In this document: positions 3,234 to 48,201 of the stretch, in pieces
Layout of the letters: each line of letters opens with the position of its first letter
Position numbering within the stretch: position 1 is the first letter of the stretch
Assembly: GCA_942490825.1 (NCBI GenBank)
Contig: CALNYG010000005.1
Location: forward strand, 262,240 to 326,239
Source: Candidatus Moraniibacteriota bacterium
GTDB taxonomy: Bacteria > Patescibacteriota > Minisyncoccia > Moranbacterales > GCA-2747515
Length of the DNA: 64,000 bases
Direction of reading: 5' to 3'
The notes under the pieces: model-generated
Seen by the model: the letters and a program-made list of their open reading frames with translations, nothing else
Database searches by the model: none
What the model was told of the DNA's origin: nothing
Made by a program: the position numbers and the translations under genes

Positions 3234-3253
3234 GTGCTCGCCGCACGGGCTTT
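3234..3253 (-). repeat. Box-A repeat, empty form, inverted orientation
   Basis: GTGCTCGCCGCACGGGCTTT, directly after the clpP terminator hairpin. Confidence 0.9.
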
Positions 3254-3338
3254 GAAATTTTGAGTTTGACTTCTTCTTCTTCTGATACGGTTGAATTGTT
3301 AGAGACGTTAACATTAATTGAGTTCAGCGGAGGAAATA

Positions 3339-9078: not shown

Positions 9079-9100
9079 AAAAAGCCTGTGCGGCGAGCAC
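9079..9100 (+). repeat. Box-A repeat (AGCCYGTGCGGCGAGCAC), empty form
   Basis: AAAAAGCCTGTGCGGCGAGCAC followed by a T-tract. Lies between the rluD-like stop and the SET start, both on the minus strand. Confidence 0.85.
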
Positions 9101-14330: not shown

Positions 14331-14352
14331 AAAAAGCCCGTGCGGCGAGCAC
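14331..14352 (+). repeat. Box-A repeat, empty form
   Basis: AAAAAGCCCGTGCGGCGAGCAC then TTTTTATTTT, 54 nt upstream of the xth start. Confidence 0.9.
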
Positions 14353-16678: not shown

Positions 16679-16700
16679 AAAAAGCCCGTGCGGCGAGCAC
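16679..16700 (+). repeat. Box-A repeat, empty form
   Basis: TTTCAGTTAAAAAGCCCGTGCGGCGAGCAC then TTTTATTTTTT, 28 nt upstream of the engB start. Confidence 0.9.
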
Positions 16701-18666: not shown

Positions 18667-18829
18667 TGTCATTCTGAACGAAGTAATATTTTCGTTAGAA
18701 AATTTTACGTAGTGAAGAATCCCCTTAGACTTTTCTGATAATTCAATTTTTAAAGTTTTGTGACTTTCTGTGGGGGATTCTTCACTGCATAAATTTATCT
18801 GCGATAAATTTATTACGTTCAGAATGACA
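18667..18829 (+). repeat. nested-palindrome element (NPE), canonical copy
   Basis: TGTCATTCTGAAC; hairpin A GTAATATTTTC-GTTA-GAAAATTTTAC; GTAGTGAAGAATCCCC; ~50-nt spacer; GGGGGATTCTTCACT; hairpin B; CGTTCAGAATGACA. Sits between sufB and sufD. Confidence 0.9.
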
Positions 18830-20318: not shown

Positions 20319-21396
20319 TCCATAAATTCTGCATTATTTATTCCTAAAATAAAGTATGGATTATCTGAGTCTTTTCTTTTCATTATAATCCAATAAGACT
20401 TGTCTAAAATAATATTCTTTGATTTTTTTCACTTAATTCTTCTACATCAACTAGTATTGCTGCTTCATTTTCAACTCTTGCACCTTTTTCATCCATGTTA
20501 AATTTAATATTCTCAAACATTGCATCAATTATATATGTTTTAAAGTCATTATTAGCTAAAGATTTACCAATCATTTCTTTATAGTCTCTGTGCATATTTA
20601 AAGAAATTTTTGGAGCTTTAAAGGTATCAATATCATCCATCCCAATTGAATGATTTTCATTTTTATTTATATTTTCAATTATATTAACAGGACTACTCAT
20701 ATCAAAACCTTTTGCTAAAAATAATTCATCCTCATCATTTTTTAAATTTAATTTTACAATAAATTTATCATCATTAGTATAATCAATAATCATTACGTTA
20801 TCTTTTTGTTTTTCTTGAGCCGTAAAACCTTTTACATTTTTTCCATTAAACATTAGGCTATTTGTTTTTTCAAAGGTTGTTAAATACTGGACTTCTTTCA
20901 AATAATAAGCATAAGAAATAATGTCTTGAGGTTCTAAATCTAAATCTAGATCATCAAAACTTTTAGTAGGAAATTTCTTTTTTGATTCAATATTTATTTC
21001 TTCAATTGTTTTTTGTCCATAGCCACTTTTTATATAATAACTCGCTTCATCTAAATCCTTTTTTGTAAAAATTGGATCATTAAATTTATCAGTCATTTCT
21101 AATGCTACTTTATCATTGGTGTCTAATTTAATTTTTTCTTTTATTACATTTTCACTTAAATCTGTCCAGGCTAAATTCATCGCCCCAGCCCAAACATAAT
21201 TTCCTTTATAATCACTTCCTAAATAATTTTCTTTTATGTCAACATTTAATTTATTTTCTTGAGAATCTTGAGTTTGACTTTGAACAGTAATTTCCTTGTT
21301 TATTTTTTCACTTTCATTTATTTTATTTTCATTATTTTTTACATTTCCACAAGCTGATAAAACAAAAGCTAAAATTAAAAGCGATGATATTTTCAT
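20319..21396 (-). pseudogene. serpin-like lipoprotein, frameshifted in an A7 run
   Basis: Lipobox LSAC-G. Serpin-like strand/hinge region FKAPKISL...NMDEKGARVENEAAILV. The expected C-terminal strands (ILDKSYWIIMKRKDSDNPYFILGINNAEF) are in the -1 frame downstream of the plus-strand T7 run at 20423-20429. Family call is by eye only. Confidence 0.45.
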
Positions 21397-22395: not shown

Positions 22396-23445
22396 ATGAA
22401 AAAAATAAATCTTGCAGTAATATTCGGAGGGAAATCTGGAGAGCATGATGTTTCGCTTTCATCTGTTCGAGGAGTAATCAAATCACTCAACCAAGAAAAA
22501 TACAACATCCAATATTTAGCTATAACCAAATCAGGTGAATGGTTGGCTGGTCAAGAGGCTGAAGAATATTTAAAATTAACTGAAAAGTTTTCAACTACAG
22601 GTGACGAAGTAGATAATTTTATTTCACAAAGTCAAAAAAACGGATTGCAAAATTTAATCGACAAAGAAATCGATGGTGAAAAAATTGATGTTGTTTTGCC
22701 GATTTTGCACGGACCTTTTGGAGAGGATGGAAAGTTGCAGGGAATGTTGGAAATAATTGATTTGCCTTACATTTTTTCAGAACCTTTGGCACATGCGATT
22801 GCTATGAATAAACCGAAAGCTAAAATTATTGCGGAACATGCGGGAGCTTTGACGGCAAATAGTTTTTCGTTTAATAAAAAGGATGAGCTTGATATGAATG
22901 AAATTATTGATGAGTTAGATTTTCCAATTGTGGTGAAGCCAGCGGAATTGGGTTCGTCAGTGGGGATGAGTATTGCGAAAAATAAAGAGGATTTGGAAAA
23001 AGGAATTGAAAAGGCGTTTGCGGTGGATGAGAGTATTATTTTGGAGAGATTTATTTCTGGTCGGGAGATGACTGTTCCAGTGGCGGATATTAAAAAACCT
23101 GAAGCGGTGGCGGTTACGGAAATTATTGCGAAAAAGGCGGATTGGTATGATTATGCGTCGAAGTATGAGGAGGGTGGTAGTCGGCATGTTTGTCCTGCAG
23201 AAATTCCTGAAGAGGTTGCGGAGAGAATGAAAGAAGATGCAGTTAAAATTTTTAAGGCAATTGGTTGTCGGGATTTGGCTCGAGCTGATTTTATTTATGA
23301 TGAAAAAAATGATCGAATTTATTTTTTGGAAATTAATACGATTCCTGGAATGACGCCAACGAGTTTGGCTCCGGAAGCGATTTTGAAAAGTGGTTTGTCA
23401 TTGGGTGATTTTTTAAATAAGTTGATTGAGAAACGTTTGGGTTAG
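22396..23445 (+). CDS. ddl: D-alanine--D-alanine ligase
   Basis: 349 aa ATP-grasp protein. Motifs GGKSGEHDVSL, HGPFGEDGKLQG, VKPAELGSSVG, EINTIPGMT. Confidence 0.95.
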   Translation: MKKINLAVIFGGKSGEHDVSLSSVRGVIKSLNQEKYNIQYLAITKSGEWLAGQEAEEYLKLTEKFSTTGDEVDNFISQSQKNGLQNLIDKEIDGEKIDVVLPILHGPFGEDGKLQGMLEIIDLPYIFSEPLAHAIAMNKPKAKIIAEHAGALTANSFSFNKKDELDMNEIIDELDFPIVVKPAELGSSVGMSIAKNKEDLEKGIEKAFAVDESIILERFISGREMTVPVADIKKPEAVAVTEIIAKKADWYDYASKYEEGGSRHVCPAEIPEEVAERMKEDAVKIFKAIGCRDLARADFIYDEKNDRIYFLEINTIPGMTPTSLAPEAILKSGLSLGDFLNKLIEKRLG

Positions 23446-23451
23446 TTTTAA

Positions 23452-23475
23452 AACAAGGGGTCATGACCCCTTGTT
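23452..23475. repeat. Pal-E perfect 24-nt palindrome
   Basis: AACAAGGGGTCATGACCCCTTGTT, 7 nt after the ddl stop. Related copies at 26483..26506 and 31208..31231. Confidence 0.9.
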
Positions 23476-23481
23476 CATTTT

Positions 23482-23510
23482 AAAAAGCAAGATTTACTTC
23501 TTGCTTTTTT
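23482..23510 (+). terminator. rho-independent terminator-like hairpin after ddl
   Basis: AAAAAGCAAGATTTACTTCTTGCTTTTTT, the same module as 3189..3218. Confidence 0.6.
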
Positions 23511-23525
23511 GTTTTGTTAATTTTT

Positions 23526-23569
23526 GTGCCTGTCTGCCGAATAGGTAGGCTCGCCGCACGGGCTTTTTT
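23526..23569 (-). repeat. Box-A repeat, filled form, inverted orientation
   Basis: Reverse complement reads AAAAAAGCCCGTGCGGCGAGC-CTACCTATTCGGCAGACAGGC-AC. Confidence 0.9.
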
Positions 23570-23594
23570 GAATTTTAGTTTTTTACAAATTTTC

Positions 23595-23818
23595 TGTCAT
23601 TCTGAACCTGCCTTTGTCGCCTGCCTGTCGGCAGACAGGGCAGACAGGCGGATTTATTTTTTTGTTAAAAAAATAAAGAAGTGAAGCCTGCCTGTCGGCA
23701 GACAGGAATCCCTCACAAAGCATCACAAAACTTTAAAATTAAAATAGCAGAAAAATTTACAAGGATTCTTCACTACATAATTTTTCATTACATGAAAAAT
23801 TATTTCGTTCAGAATGAC
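23595..23818 (-). repeat. nested-palindrome element (NPE), inverted copy with three GC mini-palindrome insertions
   Basis: Ends TGTCATTCTGAAC / GTTCAGAATGAC. The spacer is the reverse complement of the canonical spacer. GC palindromes at ~23606-23650 (two, overlapping) and 23687-23706, the latter splitting the inner arm GTGAAG|AATCCC. Confidence 0.85.
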
Positions 23819-23838
23819 GGGTTGTTCTGCCTGTTTTT

Positions 23839-24153
23839 TTAACTCAAGATGAGTTGTAAATTATTTTTTGTGGAATATTTTTTTAGTACATCTTTTATTA
23901 TTTCTTTTTCATTGGTGGAAATTTTTATTTCTTGGATGCTGGCGGTTCCGCGGATTTTTAAAAATACGCCGCTGTCTAAGTCTGTTATTTTGATTGCGTG
24001 TTTTCCGCTTTTTATTCCGTGTTTAATAAATCCAACGGAAATTTTTTTAACGTTGGGGTTTTTGTGAAGTAAGTCTACGATTTTTTCAGCGGCGGGGATT
24101 ATGGTTGTGTGGCGTCCTTTTATTTTTCCGCCTTGTCGGTGTCCTTTTGACAT
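23839..24153 (-). CDS. small basic hypothetical protein, partner of the HEPN-motif protein
   Basis: 104 aa, starts 2 nt after the stop of the upstream gene. Contains GRHTTIIPAAEKIV...VKKISVGFIKHG...FLKIRGTASIQEIKI. Possibly DUF2103-like; that is memory only and unverified. Confidence 0.55.
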   Translation of the reverse strand: MSKGHRQGGKIKGRHTTIIPAAEKIVDLLHKNPNVKKISVGFIKHGIKSGKHAIKITDLDSGVFLKIRGTASIQEIKISTNEKEIIKDVLKKYSTKNNLQLILS

Positions 24154-24155
24154 GA

Positions 24156-25451
24156 TTATTTTTTCTTTGAACTTATTCTTTTTGTAGAAGTTTTTTTGGG
24201 TTTTACAGTTAACTTAAAGTCATAGTCTAAAGTATCCTCCTTTAAATTATAATCTTCTTTATAGATTTTTTTGAAAATTTCTTTGAATTTTTTACTTTTC
24301 CTTAATTTTGAAAAAAGAGGAGCTGTTCTATATGCAGTTTTGTCTATATATTTACTTTCTTTGCCAATTTTTTCCATGAGTGATAATGCTTTTTTATTAT
24401 TACCTAATATAGTTTCTTTTGCTAAATTAAAATCATTTGCAGTTTCACTATTTCTCCAGTCAATGTCATTTAGTATTTGAGCCGCAATTTTTTCTTGATT
24501 ATTTAATTTTTTTGAAAGAGCTTTATTTATTATGAATAAGTTTTTAGTATTTACATTGGAACGCTTCATAGACTTCTCCGTTGCAAATTCTAATAAAACA
24601 TCTGCAAGTTGATAGTTTTCTTTTTCTATTAATTTATAACAAATATCGTTATTTAAGTTAGTATCTGCTAAATCAATTTCTTTAGGTTTTAATTTTCTCC
24701 ATATAACATGCGTCAGTTTAGTTCCTACTTCAAATAAACATTCATAAGAAGATTTTAAATAATCTGCACTTATCTCTAATTTATCTCCAATTTTATATTT
24801 TTTATCAATGATTATTCCATGTTCTTTGCAGTTAGTTATATATTGACTGCTAATTTTTCCTCCGCAATGAGCGAATAAATTTCTTCTTTCAGTTATTTCA
24901 ATGAAATCTTTCCAAGATGAAAAACTTCTTAAAGTTTGTATATCTAGTTTTTTTTCAAGCCATACAAAATGTTCTTTATGATTATTTCTTAAAACGCTCT
25001 CAATTTCTTTTTCTATCATGTAATTCTTTGCTTCTTTTATACTTTTTAATTTTGCTAGTGATGAGAAATTTAGGCTTTTTTCAGAGCTATTTAATATTTC
25101 TGGTTTTAGATGTAATATTATTTGTATTGTTTTGTAGATAAAGGCATCAAATTGACTAACCAAAGAAATTAGAGAGCTTGCTGGAATCACTTTAAATGAT
25201 GCTTTTGTAATATCAATATCTTTTTTTATTTTTTTGTAATGGTGAATATCTTCACGTTTTAAAATAAATGATTTTGAGGTTTTTTTCTGTGCTTTTTTAT
25301 CTATAAAGTCAGACATTTTACTGTAATTTGTTTTTTGAGTTACTGCAGTTAAACCCATTGTTAAATCCAGTGAATTTTTTAAACTATCAATATTATCAAT
25401 GAAATTATTCAGATTTTCTTCAAAGGGATTAACTTTCGCTTTTTTATTCAT
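24156..25451 (-). CDS. HEPN-motif protein (Abi / RiboL-PSP-like), putative RNase-type defence or toxin component
   Basis: 431 aa. An R-x4-H motif sits in a helical context (FIEITERRNLFAHCGGKIS), with a helical-repeat C-terminal half. A/T-ending codon usage typical of the accessory genes here. Confidence 0.55.
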   Translation of the reverse strand: MNKKAKVNPFEENLNNFIDNIDSLKNSLDLTMGLTAVTQKTNYSKMSDFIDKKAQKKTSKSFILKREDIHHYKKIKKDIDITKASFKVIPASSLISLVSQFDAFIYKTIQIILHLKPEILNSSEKSLNFSSLAKLKSIKEAKNYMIEKEIESVLRNNHKEHFVWLEKKLDIQTLRSFSSWKDFIEITERRNLFAHCGGKISSQYITNCKEHGIIIDKKYKIGDKLEISADYLKSSYECLFEVGTKLTHVIWRKLKPKEIDLADTNLNNDICYKLIEKENYQLADVLLEFATEKSMKRSNVNTKNLFIINKALSKKLNNQEKIAAQILNDIDWRNSETANDFNLAKETILGNNKKALSLMEKIGKESKYIDKTAYRTAPLFSKLRKSKKFKEIFKKIYKEDYNLKEDTLDYDFKLTVKPKKTSTKRISSKKK

Positions 25452-25547
25452 GCCTTCTATATAATTAAAGTTTATTATTTCAATTATAACATTCTTTCAA
25501 TTCAAGAATGTGCTAAAATACACACAAGACTAAAAATAACAATATTT

Positions 25548-26156
25548 ATGCATAGCACAAAAAAAGCAGTAATTTTCGATTTTGATGGAGTGATTGCGGA
25601 CACCTTTGAATTTCATCGGGAGCATTTTAAGGAATATCTTGATGTTTCGCTATCAAAAAAAGAATATCAAGATTGGCAAAGAGGAAATGTTTATGATGGA
25701 AAAGGAAAAGTCAGTAGCGAGGATTTAATTCGATATTTTAAAATGATTGTGGAAGATCATAAAAATGTTAAAATTTTTCAAGGAATGAGTGAATTAATAA
25801 AAAAGTTGAAGGATGATTATGATCTTTTTATTGTTACTTCTAGTAGTGATATTAATACAATAAACTGGCTAAAAAAAGAAAATATTTTTGACTGTTTTAT
25901 GGAAATTTTAGGTGTTGAGTTTGATAGATCTAAAGTTGTTAAGCTTAATCATATTCTTGAAAAATATGAATTGGAAAAAGATGATGTTTTGTTTGTGACG
26001 GATACTTCAGGGGATGTTTTTGAGGCGAATAAGGTTGGGGTTAAATCGATTGCGGTTACTTGGGGTTTTCATGATCGGGAGATTTTGGCGGAGAGTGAGC
26101 CGTTTGCTTATGTGGATAATGTGGAGGAGCTTGGTCGTAAAGTTGAAAGTTTGTAA
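25548..26156 (+). CDS. HAD-superfamily hydrolase (phosphatase, subfamily IA-like)
   Basis: Motif I FDFDGVIADT, motif II VTSS, motif IV FVTDTSGDV. Confidence 0.85.
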   Translation: MHSTKKAVIFDFDGVIADTFEFHREHFKEYLDVSLSKKEYQDWQRGNVYDGKGKVSSEDLIRYFKMIVEDHKNVKIFQGMSELIKKLKDDYDLFIVTSSSDINTINWLKKENIFDCFMEILGVEFDRSKVVKLNHILEKYELEKDDVLFVTDTSGDVFEANKVGVKSIAVTWGFHDREILAESEPFAYVDNVEELGRKVESL

Positions 26157-26233
26157 AGTTTTAAATTAATTTTTAATCCCCAATGAGGCTCGAGGACATG
26201 TTTACGAATTTTCAATTTTCAAATAGTGCAACC

Positions 26234-26395
26234 TGTCATTCTGAACGAAGTAGAATTTTCGTTAGAAAATTTTACGCAGTGAAGAATCCCAGTAAGTTTT
26301 TTTGATATTTTAATTTTAAAGTTTTGTGACTTTCTGTGGGGGATTCTTCACTTCATAAATTTATCTGCGATAAATTTATTACGTTCAGAATGACA
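26234..26395 (+). repeat. nested-palindrome element (NPE), canonical copy
   Basis: TGTCATTCTGAAC; GTAGAATTTTC-GTTA-GAAAATTTTAC; CAGTGAAGAATCCC; spacer; GGGGGATTCTTCACT; ATAAATTTATC-TGC-GATAAATTTAT; CGTTCAGAATGACA. Preceded by TTTTCAATTTTCAAATAGTGCAAC as in copies 2234 and 18667. Confidence 0.9.
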
Positions 26396-26439
26396 GGTTA
26401 AATAATGGTAAAATTGTAGAGGTTTAAAATTTTAAACCT

Positions 26440-26461
26440 AAAAAGCCCGTGCGGCGAGCAC
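26440..26461 (+). repeat. Box-A repeat, empty form
   Basis: AAAAAGCCCGTGCGGCGAGCAC, preceded by the 20-nt palindrome AGGTTTAAAATTTTAAACCT. About 60 nt upstream of xseA. Confidence 0.9.
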
Positions 26462-26482
26462 TTTTATTTTTTTAAATAATTA

Positions 26483-26506
26483 AACAATGGGTCATGACCT
26501 ATTGTT
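26483..26506. repeat. Pal-E palindrome variant
   Basis: AACAATGGGTCATGACCTATTGTT, 15 nt upstream of the xseA ATG. A symmetric T/A change relative to copy 23452 keeps the pairing. Confidence 0.85.
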
Positions 26507-26521
26507 TAAAGAGAATAAATT

Positions 26522-28138
26522 ATGACAATTTTACAAAAACTAACAGATTGGCAAAAGGAGAAGGCTCGAATCGAAGGGTTGGAGGGTTATATGGTTTTGC
26601 CGTTTAAATCTTTGCAGGAAATTTCTCGAACTTTACCTAAAGATGATGTAGAGCTTTTGGCGGTTAAGGGAGTTGGTCCAGTCAAGGTTCGAAAGTATGG
26701 TCGGGATATTTTGAATATTGTGGCGGGAAAGGACGTTGAGCAAAATAATTTTTCGCAGGGTATTCGGGAGTTGGCGGGAGATTCTTTTGATGATGCGGAT
26801 GTGATTAATAATTTTTTAGGAACTGGTGGAAGTGATGAGATTGAGAATAATTTTTTTTCGGGGAAAATTGATTTGGAAAATGAGTCGGTTTTTAAGGATG
26901 AGAATAATTTTGAAAATGATGTTGATAATTCTAAAAATAAAATTGATCCAGAAACAGGGGAAATTTTAAATTTTGAAAATGATGCACTTTCAGTGAGCGA
27001 GGCTTTGGATGTTTGTAATGCTTCTTTGATTCAGAATAGATTGCGAGTTCAGGGTGAAGTTATGAGAATTGATTCTCGTGAGCGAGTAATTTATTTTACT
27101 TTGAAAGATGATGAGGATGGGAGTGTGGTGAGTTGTTTGATTTTTCGTAATAATTATGAGTTGAGCGGGGTTTCTTTGACAGAAGGGATAGAAGTTATCG
27201 TGGAAGCGACGGCGGAAATTTATAAGCCGACAGGGCGATTGAGTTTAAAAGCGAGCAGTGTTGAGTTGGCAGGAGAAGGTGCTTTGAAAAAAGCTTATGA
27301 AGACTTGAAGAAAAAATTAGATCAGGGGGGTTTATTTTCTTCAGAGCGAAAAAAGGAGATTGAAAAATTGCCCCAGAGAATTGGTTTGATTACTTCTCGG
27401 GATGGGGCGGCGATTGGTGATTTTACGACTAATTTGGGAAGCTATGGTTTTAAGATTGTTTTTTGTCATTCGAGTGTTGAGGGGCAAAAAGCGGTTGCTG
27501 AAATTTTGTCGGCGTTGAAAATTATGAGTGAACGGGATTTAGATTTGTTAGTTATTGTGCGAGGTGGTGGGAGTATGGAGAGTTTGCAGGCTTTTAATAA
27601 TGAGAAAATTGTGAGGGCGGTGGCGGATTTTTCTGTTCCGGTGATTGCGGGAATTGGTCATGAACAGGATGAGACTTTGACGACTTTGGTGGCGGATGTG
27701 GGTGTTTCGACTCCAACGGCTGCGGCACGAATTGTTCGGGAAAGTTGGGATTTAGCGAAAGAAAATATTGGTCAGCAGGAAAATTTTTTGTTGAGTTCTT
27801 TTGAAAATATTTTGCTAGATGTTAAAAATAAATTGAAAGATGGTTCAGAAATTATGACGGGATTTTTTGAACGGGTTAATGATGACTTTGAAAATAAATT
27901 GAGCAGTTTAAAAAATTGTTTTGATAAATTAGGTTTTCAAATTAAGGAAATAAAAAGTGGGGTTAATTTTTCAGAAAAGTTTTTGCAACAAAATAATCCT
28001 GAGAGACAGTTGAAATTGGGTTATTCGATTGCTCGAGATGAAAAAGGGGATATTATTCGAAGTGTCAAGGACGTAAATAAGGACGATAAAATTGATTTGC
28101 AGTTGGGTGATGGAAAAGTGAGCGTAAAGGTTAAATAG
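26522..28138 (+). CDS. xseA: exodeoxyribonuclease VII large subunit with N-terminal HRDC-like domain
   Basis: aa ~155-538: OB fold plus ExoVII_L blocks (RIGLITSRDGAAIGDF, LVIVRGGGS, PVIAGIGHEQDETL). aa 1-70 resemble an HRDC/HhH module (LTDWQKEKARIEGLEGYMVLPFKSLQEISRTLP...LLAVKGVGPVKVRKYG). An acidic linker lies between them. Confidence 0.9.
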   Translation: MTILQKLTDWQKEKARIEGLEGYMVLPFKSLQEISRTLPKDDVELLAVKGVGPVKVRKYGRDILNIVAGKDVEQNNFSQGIRELAGDSFDDADVINNFLGTGGSDEIENNFFSGKIDLENESVFKDENNFENDVDNSKNKIDPETGEILNFENDALSVSEALDVCNASLIQNRLRVQGEVMRIDSRERVIYFTLKDDEDGSVVSCLIFRNNYELSGVSLTEGIEVIVEATAEIYKPTGRLSLKASSVELAGEGALKKAYEDLKKKLDQGGLFSSERKKEIEKLPQRIGLITSRDGAAIGDFTTNLGSYGFKIVFCHSSVEGQKAVAEILSALKIMSERDLDLLVIVRGGGSMESLQAFNNEKIVRAVADFSVPVIAGIGHEQDETLTTLVADVGVSTPTAAARIVRESWDLAKENIGQQENFLLSSFENILLDVKNKLKDGSEIMTGFFERVNDDFENKLSSLKNCFDKLGFQIKEIKSGVNFSEKFLQQNNPERQLKLGYSIARDEKGDIIRSVKDVNKDDKIDLQLGDGKVSVKVK

Positions 28139-28825: not shown

Positions 28826-28868
28826 AAAAAGCTCGTGCGGCGAGCCTGCCTGTTCGGCAGACAGGCAC
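28826..28868 (+). repeat. Box-A repeat, filled form
   Basis: AAAAAGCTCGTGCGGCGAGC-CTGCCTGTTCGGCAGACAGGC-AC, 75 nt upstream of the oxidoreductase alpha gene. Confidence 0.9.
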
Positions 28869-39878: not shown

Positions 39879-40039
39879 TATCATTCTGAACGAAATAATT
39901 TTTATGAAATAAAAATTATGTAGTGAAGAATCTTAATGAGTTTTTCTGATATTATAACTTGAAAGCTTTGATATTTTTTTAGGAGATTCTTCACTTCTTT
40001 ATTTTTTTTAACAAAAAAATAAATCCGTTCAGAATGACA
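39879..40039 (+). repeat. nested-palindrome element (NPE), canonical architecture with alternative hairpins
   Basis: TATCATTCTGAAC; ATAATTTTTAT-GAA-ATAAAAATTAT; GTAGTGAAGAATCT; spacer; GAGATTCTTCACT; TTTATTTTTTTT-AAC-AAAAAAATAAA; CGTTCAGAATGACA. Confidence 0.9.
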
Positions 40040-40970: not shown

Positions 40971-41015
40971 AAAAGCCCGTGCGGCGAGCCTGCCTGTTGC
41001 ATGGCAGACAGGCAC
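40971..41015 (+). repeat. Box-A repeat, filled form (enlarged loop)
   Basis: AAAAGCCCGTGCGGCGAGC-CTGCCTGTTGCATGGCAGACAGGC-AC, preceded by the near-palindrome AGGTTCAAGATCTTAAACCT. 88 nt upstream of 41103, in a divergent intergenic region. Confidence 0.9.
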
Positions 41016-48159: not shown

Positions 48160-48201
48160 AAAAAGCCCGTGCGGCGAGCCTGCCTATCGGCAGACAGGCA
48201 C
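48160..48201 (+). repeat. Box-A repeat, filled form
   Basis: AAAAAGCCCGTGCGGCGAGC-CTGCCTATCGGCAGACAGGC-AC then TTTTTATTTTTT, 45 nt upstream of rpiB. Near-identical to the copy at 781..822. Confidence 0.9.

Follow-up and report, generated by a model that had tools for sequence, protein, structure and literature searches.

Synteny separates a mobile gene for a predicted stand-alone HEPN-type RNase from the resident DUF2103 gene beside it in a Moraniibacteriota genome

HEPN domains are recognised by an Rx4-6H motif in which a polar residue (N, D or H) follows the arginine, by an upstream acidic residue that typically belongs to an Ex3[KR] motif, and by the position of the motif in helix 3 (PMC3710099). 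A validated one-protein defence, DS-11, combines CBS and HEPN (DefensePredictor, PMC13092281). A DUF2103-like domain is a proposed effector of conflict systems (Menshen), and a connection of DUF2103 with type III CRISPR loci has also been reported (PMC12065111). Here we analysed a 64,000-nt stretch of the Candidatus Moraniibacteriota contig CALNYG010000005.1 (the window, on which all coordinates are based), in which a gene for a 431-aa protein with an Rx4H motif (the large protein) lies directly ahead of a gene for a 104-aa DUF2103 protein (the small protein). A preliminary description of this DNA had taken the two for a translationally coupled cassette resembling toxin-antitoxin or abortive-infection (Abi) modules. 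The pair is not a cassette or system. In our reading, to which we give a probability of about 0.6, the two are unrelated genes joined by an insertion, and the large protein is a predicted stand-alone ribonuclease (RNase) of the HEPN type that belongs to a mobile, unnamed family.

Both open reading frames (ORFs) were found at the positions first given for them, with the TAA stop of the large ORF at 24158-24156, followed by 2 nt and the ATG of the small ORF at 24153. The locus was compared with that of a Moranbacteria metagenome-assembled genome, GCA_023133275.1 (L081), and with a second Patescibacteria DUF2103 context (L088), the DUF2103 proteins of which are 83% and 78% identical to that of the window, respectively. 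The features of the locus are as follows.

24156-25451, minus strand: large gene, 431 aa, of a large unnamed family; the horizontally acquired part.
23839-24153, minus strand: DUF2103 gene, 104 aa, Pfam PF09876; a resident conserved Patescibacteria gene.
24166-25472: window-specific segment of about 1.3 kb, from blastn and alignments against L081 and L088; L088 has a 71-bp spacer there.
25483-25491, minus strand: extended -10-like element TGTTATAAT, 31 nt upstream of the large-ORF ATG, within the stretch common to L088.

The resident block runs sufC-ddl-DUF2103-(variable slot)-HAD hydrolase-xseA-xseB, and the L081 order, xseB-xseA-ORF-HAD-(slot)-DUF2103-ddl-...-sufC-sufBD, matches it, except that a 353-aa beta-helix/NosD-like gene (L081 3835-4896) replaces the large gene in the slot between HAD and DUF2103. 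By blastn, the L081 and window DNAs are 79-88% identical on both sides of the slot and share nothing over 24166-25496. The slot of L088 is empty, with HAD and DUF2103 as divergent neighbours separated by 146 bp. In the alignments, homology to the relatives stops at about 25472 and about 24166, which leaves a window-specific segment that hardly exceeds the large ORF in size. By synteny, this segment is an insertion. Base composition divides the two genes in the same way: the large gene has a GC content of 24.7% and a GC content at third codon positions (GC3) of 16.4%, and the small gene has 34.9% and 34.3%, like ddl, xseA and sufC. The accessory-type codon usage once ascribed to the whole cassette was therefore borne out for the large gene (GC3 16.4%) and not for the small one, the GC3 of which is that of its neighbours. 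These results support the large gene as a horizontally acquired accessory gene and the DUF2103 gene as native.

The same comparison bears on the 2-nt spacing. The final codons and stop of the large ORF (AAG AAA AAA TAA) fall in GAAAAAATAAT, which is also the DUF2103 leader in L081. Because the end of the large ORF matches the resident 5' leader, the spacing that had suggested translational coupling is best read as an insertion junction. To judge from this short A-rich sequence, the incoming reading frame would simply continue into the resident DUF2103 leader until the first stop. On the other side, the large gene is preceded by a 96-bp divergent promoter region that holds TGTTATAAT, a putative promoter judging from its sequence; its counterpart in L088, TGCTATACT, precedes the DUF2103 start by about 86 nt, without an intervening gene. 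The foreign DNA of about 1.3 kb would thus have entered downstream of a conserved region that resembles a promoter and ahead of the DUF2103 start codon, and from this placement the two genes are probably co-transcribed, by accident of position alone. Comparison with relatives shows in this case how an insertion junction can create tight gene spacing, and the empty, beta-helix-filled and HEPN-filled versions of the slot in related genomes offer a natural experiment on the entry of accessory genes into compact Patescibacteria genomes.

The small protein, rightly described at first as basic and rich in Lys, His and Gly (pI 10.2; 18 K, 5 H, 9 G), matched PF09876 at 32.0 bits (gathering cut-off, 22.4; E value, 1.2e-7) over model positions 4-85 of 98. 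We found 47 further homologues of 95-117 aa and 58-84% identity, 43 of which have a precomputed PF09876 match; those with a taxon name belong to Moranbacteria, Pacebacteria or generic Patescibacteria. An alignment of 29 sequences contained 27 invariant columns, and the Patescibacteria DUF2103 proteins are extremely conserved overall (MSKGH.xGGK...HTTxIP...GFIKHGI...KIRGTASIQE), so that the small protein (58-84% identity) is conserved far better than the large one, the best homologue of which is 59% identical. PF09876 is named 'predicted metal-binding protein', yet the Patescibacteria DUF2103 proteins have no cysteine, which excludes a Cys-based metal site in them. A search of PDB sequences with the small-protein profile gave no match. 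The gene itself is syntenic in L081 and L088. In three Patescibacteria contexts that differ in other respects (L081 3835-4896; L089/L090 4400-5878; L091 7321-8288), beta-helix/NosD-domain genes lie within a few kilobases of DUF2103, a recurrence that may reflect chance or a loose association.

Whether the two genes keep company elsewhere was examined from both sides. A scan of one genome per species yielded 203 genomes that encode a relative of the large protein, and 80 of the loci were analysed with 6-kb flanks. When the small protein was compared with the 80 loci by tblastn, the best E value was 5 and no DUF2103 was detected; conversely, no large-protein homologue lies beside DUF2103 in six distinct Patescibacteria DUF2103 contexts (L081-L091). 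Since the two genes fail to co-occur elsewhere (0/80 and 0/6), the pair was rejected, and with it the preliminary description's toxin-antitoxin or Abi module. The proposal that a HEPN toxin is translationally coupled here to a small basic antitoxin or partner could draw on the shared strand and the 2-nt distance, on the commonness of small partners for HEPN toxins (PMC3710099), on the Menshen effector role proposed for a DUF2103-like domain and on the connection of DUF2103 with type III CRISPR (PMC12065111). The effector proposal leaves a small chance of a local functional link between the two genes. Besides the failure to co-occur, however, the DUF2103 gene stays put when the slot is empty or differently filled, the two genes differ in composition and are unequally conserved (58-84% identity for the small protein versus at most 59% for the large one), and the junction matches the resident 5' leader. 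Joint mobility of the pair was not observed either, as only the large gene is low in GC and absent from relatives. We regard a module of these two genes as very improbable; had it been accepted as first described, a spurious 'HEPN + small basic protein' pair would have entered the catalogues.

Nor was any other partner found in the 80 loci. ORFs were clustered by BLAST at an E value of 1e-5 or lower, a procedure that misses very divergent small proteins and is blind to RNAs; the homologue family occurred in 79 loci and the next commonest family in 5. The 118 immediate neighbours of the homologues match 120 Pfam families, none of which is matched by more than 3 neighbours. The large gene could still be a conventional toxin with a neighbouring antitoxin that escaped the clustering, being small and fast-evolving or else non-coding: short unclustered ORFs do stand beside the homologue at many loci. 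However, the flanks in the window (the 96-bp divergent promoter region on one side and DUF2103 on the other) leave no room for a partner, the orientation and spacing of the neighbours vary freely among loci, and an Rfam scan of 23300-26600 gave nothing credible. A missed antitoxin is thus improbable, if less so than the two-gene module. As a separate observation, ddl lies directly upstream of the large-protein homologue in a Pedobacter metagenome-assembled genome (L025 4744-5781) and two genes away in the window; among the window and the 80 loci, only these two show such proximity, which is probably a coincidence.

The large gene on its own is mobile and widespread. At least 392 homologues were collected, none with a Pfam domain on record and all called 'hypothetical protein' where named at all, and a profile search of 1.84 billion representatives returned 5,772 clusters (50% identity) at an E value of 1e-3 or lower, including 1,990 at 1e-30 or lower. 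The 203 species genomes belong to Bacteroidota, Acidobacteriota, Cyanobacteriota, Planctomycetota, Patescibacteria and other phyla. Copies were found on 3 cyanobacterial plasmids, one of them directly after a type I restriction-modification (R-M) system, and 7 IMG/VR contigs carry a homologue. Some of the contigs with a family member are prophage-like, and on three of the 7 the gene has a CI-like repressor, an integrase or a Mu-F head protein close by, one of these on each. A search of BFVD produced one match, an uncharacterised 311-aa siphovirus protein (E value, 1e-4; template modelling [TM] score, 0.71), which provided no functional lead. Pfam gave 0 matches to the large protein at an E value of 1 or lower, PHROGs no family, and NCBIfam a sub-threshold match only.

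Two such mobile contexts are worth recording in their own right. On a fourth plasmid (Crinalium pCRI9333.02), an unannotated fragment (L086 4001-4216) matches the motif region of the large protein (residues 183-255) with 51% identity. It adjoins the remains of a Tn3 transposase as well as a RelE/XRE pair, and it looks like a decayed copy (pseudogene remnant) of the family. On one IMG/VR contig (L092 3774-5297), the Mu-F-like head protein gene stands two ORFs upstream of the homologue, and the C terminus of its product weakly matches a CdiA_C-type toxin domain (E value, 5.8e-5; 23.6 bits, below the Pfam cut-off of 26.6).

The AlphaFold2 model of the large protein (predicted local distance difference test [pLDDT], 86.9; predicted TM score [pTM], 0.84) is all-helical with a disordered Lys-rich tail, and the following parts were distinguished.

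25107-25427, minus strand: helical hairpin, residues 9-115 (helices 9-53 and 66-115) in the AlphaFold2 model; the second helix carries the invariant D102.
24690-25040, minus strand: HEPN-like core, residues 138-254, with helices 138-154, 158-169, 180-196, 202-210 and 229-254.
24987-25001, minus strand: [E/D]151-x3-R155, the second HEPN motif (Ex3[KR], as defined in PMC3710099), then the invariant H158; from conservation.
24867-24884, minus strand: R190-N-L-F-A-H195, an Rx4H motif with a polar residue after the arginine, read from the sequence within ERRNLFAH (residues 188-195).
24261-24686, minus strand: eight short paired helices, residues 256-397, a TPR-like alpha-solenoid in the AlphaFold2 model.

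Conservation was assessed across 120 homologues, which share 35-59% identity with the query. R190, N191, H195, D102, R155, H158, E185, T187 and G198 are invariant in 120/120, the invariant charged residues cluster in the HEPN-like core (138-254), and position 151, on the predicted helix 138-154, is E or D in 119/120. When the large protein was shuffled, Rx4H arose by chance in 19% and R[NDH]xxxH in 2.9% of the shuffles. Because of the 19%, the motif is weak evidence in a single sequence; because R190, N191 and H195 are invariant across 120 divergent homologues, it is meaningful here. The R-x4-H within ERRNLFAH, noted at first reading after a long helical region, is thus real. Of the HEPN hallmarks, the core shows Rx4H, the polar N191 after the arginine and the upstream [E/D]x3R, and in the model the Rx4H motif ends the predicted helix 180-196, to be followed by a loop and the long helix 229-254. 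Among 5,027 PADLOC models, RTasHEPN was the sole match, hitting the same segment in 11 of 28 family members (best E value, 2.9e-5; 12-22 bits), while Pfam HEPN_RiboL-PSP matched 1 of 28 members at an E value of 0.019. On these data we call the core HEPN-like and regard its membership of the HEPN superfamily as probable.

For the C-terminal half, the helical repeats of the early description were recovered as TPR-like helices in the AlphaFold2 model. The best Foldseek matches in PDB were repeats of the TPR, SNAP, CSN4, Rap and NprR types (E values, 0.2-1.7; none significant), no Pfam TPR profile matched, and NCBIfam TPR_END_plus gave an E value of 0.017 at 15 bits against a cut-off of 32; together these constitute weak evidence that this half is TPR-like. 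Judged from the model, the solenoid (256-397) may be a sensor or partner-binding domain, and the hairpin (9-115) may be a dimerisation or scaffold element.

Several results weigh against our reading, the possible local link to DUF2103 raised above among them. RTasHEPN matched the query itself at an E value of 0.023, and no curated HEPN model was significant for it (in Pfam, 0 at an E value of 1 or lower). A profile search of PDB sequences with the large-protein family returned nothing, and Foldseek comparison of the full model and of the isolated core (residues 60-258, predicted separately) with PDB retrieved no HEPN structure (E values above 0.2; TM scores of about 0.2), the matches being non-significant helical-repeat, globin and phycobiliprotein noise. 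When the core was aligned by hhalign with an Abi_2 profile built from a neighbour's homologues, the probability was 0.07%, both profiles being shallow (effective number of sequences [Neff], about 2.4-2.8). As for a role in defence, 50,697 phage records encode no homologue, and most neighbours of the homologues are ordinary metabolic or housekeeping genes: Abi_2/AbiD, Pycsar-type TIR, type II methyltransferases, Zeta toxin, capP and PDC-S35 occur among the 118, and any enrichment in defence islands, judged from these raw counts, is modest.

With no significant HEPN model or structure match, with the best (non-significant) structural neighbours being of the TPR/SNAP/Rap/NprR type, and with Rx4H appearing by chance in 19% of shuffles, the large protein might be no nuclease at all and instead a helical scaffold or TPR-type receptor or regulator (RRNPP-type or adaptor-like), the conserved polar residues of which bind a ligand or partner. 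Yet D102, R155, H158, E185, R190, N191 and H195 are invariant in the 120 homologues, a pattern typical of catalytic residues, the two HEPN motifs occur in the expected order and helix position, the weak RTasHEPN matches always fall in the same register, and the Pfam and NCBIfam scans detected no DNA-binding or other output domain. A non-nuclease is unlikely on this balance, though it is the strongest of the competing explanations for the gene.

We infer that the large protein acts as a single-protein HEPN-type RNase, and the mechanism that we propose for it, from predicted structure and conserved residues, includes RNase activity, dimerisation, sensing and a defence role. The core would provide a metal-independent RNase site from R190, N191 and H195 together with [E/D]151 and R155. 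Like that of other HEPN enzymes, this site would form in a dimer, which the long N-terminal hairpin would mediate. Until a trigger, for example a phage protein, was bound, the TPR-like solenoid at the C terminus would keep the enzyme inactive; the activated RNase would cleave RNA and so bring the infected cell to arrest, in the manner of abortive infection. A putative stand-alone sensor-plus-RNase defence gene is the most likely assignment, because the invariant residues look catalytic, there is no partner gene, the distribution is mobile and patchy, defence genes are occasional neighbours, and DS-11 sets a precedent. A more tentative proposal, to which we would give somewhat less than even odds, is that the family represents an antiphage system of one protein that has so far escaped recognition, its divergent HEPN RNase being gated by a TPR-like sensor; no Pfam, NCBIfam, PADLOC or PHROG model covers the family. 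The candidate that is left is an unnamed, widely distributed family of single genes, the products of which combine a probable HEPN RNase site with a putative sensor domain of the repeat type. Should the family serve in defence, the defence finders now in use would be missing a common single-protein system, and minimal defences would reach even ultra-small, episymbiont-type bacteria such as this Patescibacteria lineage with its reduced genome.

The repeats near the pair, once described as flanking it, include the following.

23596-23818, no strand assigned: miniature inverted-repeat transposable element (MITE)-like element with terminal inverted repeats GTCATTCTGAAC / GTTCAGAATGAC, in which two 21-nt palindromes are nested (23619-23639 and 23686-23706).
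26235-26394, no strand assigned: MITE-like element, second copy, between the HAD hydrolase gene and xseA.
23548-23567, plus strand: GC-rich hairpin GGCTCGCCGCACGGGCTTTT downstream of ddl; a dispersed repeat that resembles a terminator.

The MITE-like element, about 160 nt long with GTCATTCTGAACG termini and terminal inverted repeats CCTGTCATTCTGAACG / CGTTCAGAATGACAGG, is present in the window as at least 4 full copies (18668-18828, 23596-23818, 26235-26394 and 39880-40038) as well as solo ends at 2235, 14246, 16603, 48045 and 60755, and the 21-nt palindrome GCCTGCCTGTCGGCAGACAGG has 6 copies. With up to 3 mismatches allowed, 13 copies of the hairpin GGCTCGCCGCACGGGCTTTT were counted in the window against 0 expected, often at gene ends; they include 782-801, 3235-3254, 9080-9099, 14332-14351, 16680-16699, 23548-23567, 26441-26460, 28827-28846, 40971-40990 and 48161-48180, among others. 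A near-identical hairpin is present in L081, and it looks like a terminator or repetitive extragenic palindromic (REP)-type repeat shared in the lineage. On the left of the pair, repeats at 23524-23818 do occupy the spacer between the convergent ddl and DUF2103 genes, whose counterpart in L081 is free of them; on the right (25452-25547) there is none. We rejected the repeats as mobile-element borders of the pair, as they are dispersed through the window and absent on the right, and likewise a composite transposon in which the two copies of the MITE-like element would enclose DUF2103-HEPN-HAD, as the DUF2103-HAD adjacency is ancestral. The repeats are dispersed intergenic elements that do not delimit the pair.

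Two further differences from L081 were recorded in the vicinity. Homology to L081 breaks off over a 330-aa ORF with a lipoprotein-like N terminus (20404-21396, minus strand), which is as low in GC (24%; GC3, 13%) as the large gene and was probably acquired as well. Between its HAD hydrolase gene and xseA, L081 has a 193-aa gene (L081 2488-3069) that is missing from the corresponding place in the window (26157-26521), where the 365-bp HAD-xseA spacer is filled by the MITE-like element and the hairpin repeat; the gene seems to have been lost or replaced.

Compared with known systems, the large protein comes close to the stand-alone HEPN RNases of the Abi type (AbiD/F Abi_2, RiboL-PSP-HEPN and ApeA; PMC3710099), with which it shares an R-N-x3-H at a helix end with an upstream [E/D]-x3-R, an all-helical core, a single-gene organisation and a patchy horizontal spread, sometimes beside R-M or defence genes. 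Unlike them, it has a 115-residue hairpin in front of the core and a 140-residue TPR-like solenoid behind it. The PADLOC model PDLC03820, 'RTasHEPN', a HEPN listed under defence-associated reverse transcriptases (DRT), is matched at profile positions 40-99 of 148, a region that covers both motifs, whereas the flanking domains differ; no reverse transcriptase appears in the 25 listed of the 120 Pfam families of the 118 neighbours. The combination of a HEPN core and TPR-type repeats in one polypeptide is a likeness in design only, with no LA2681 or DUF4209 Pfam match to the large protein, and no TPR-encoding neighbour of the homologues recurs (no neighbour family occurs in more than 5 of the 80 loci). 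DS-11 follows the same proposed logic, in which a regulatory or sensing domain would control a dimeric HEPN RNase within one polypeptide; its sensing domain is CBS and the putative one of the large protein TPR-like.

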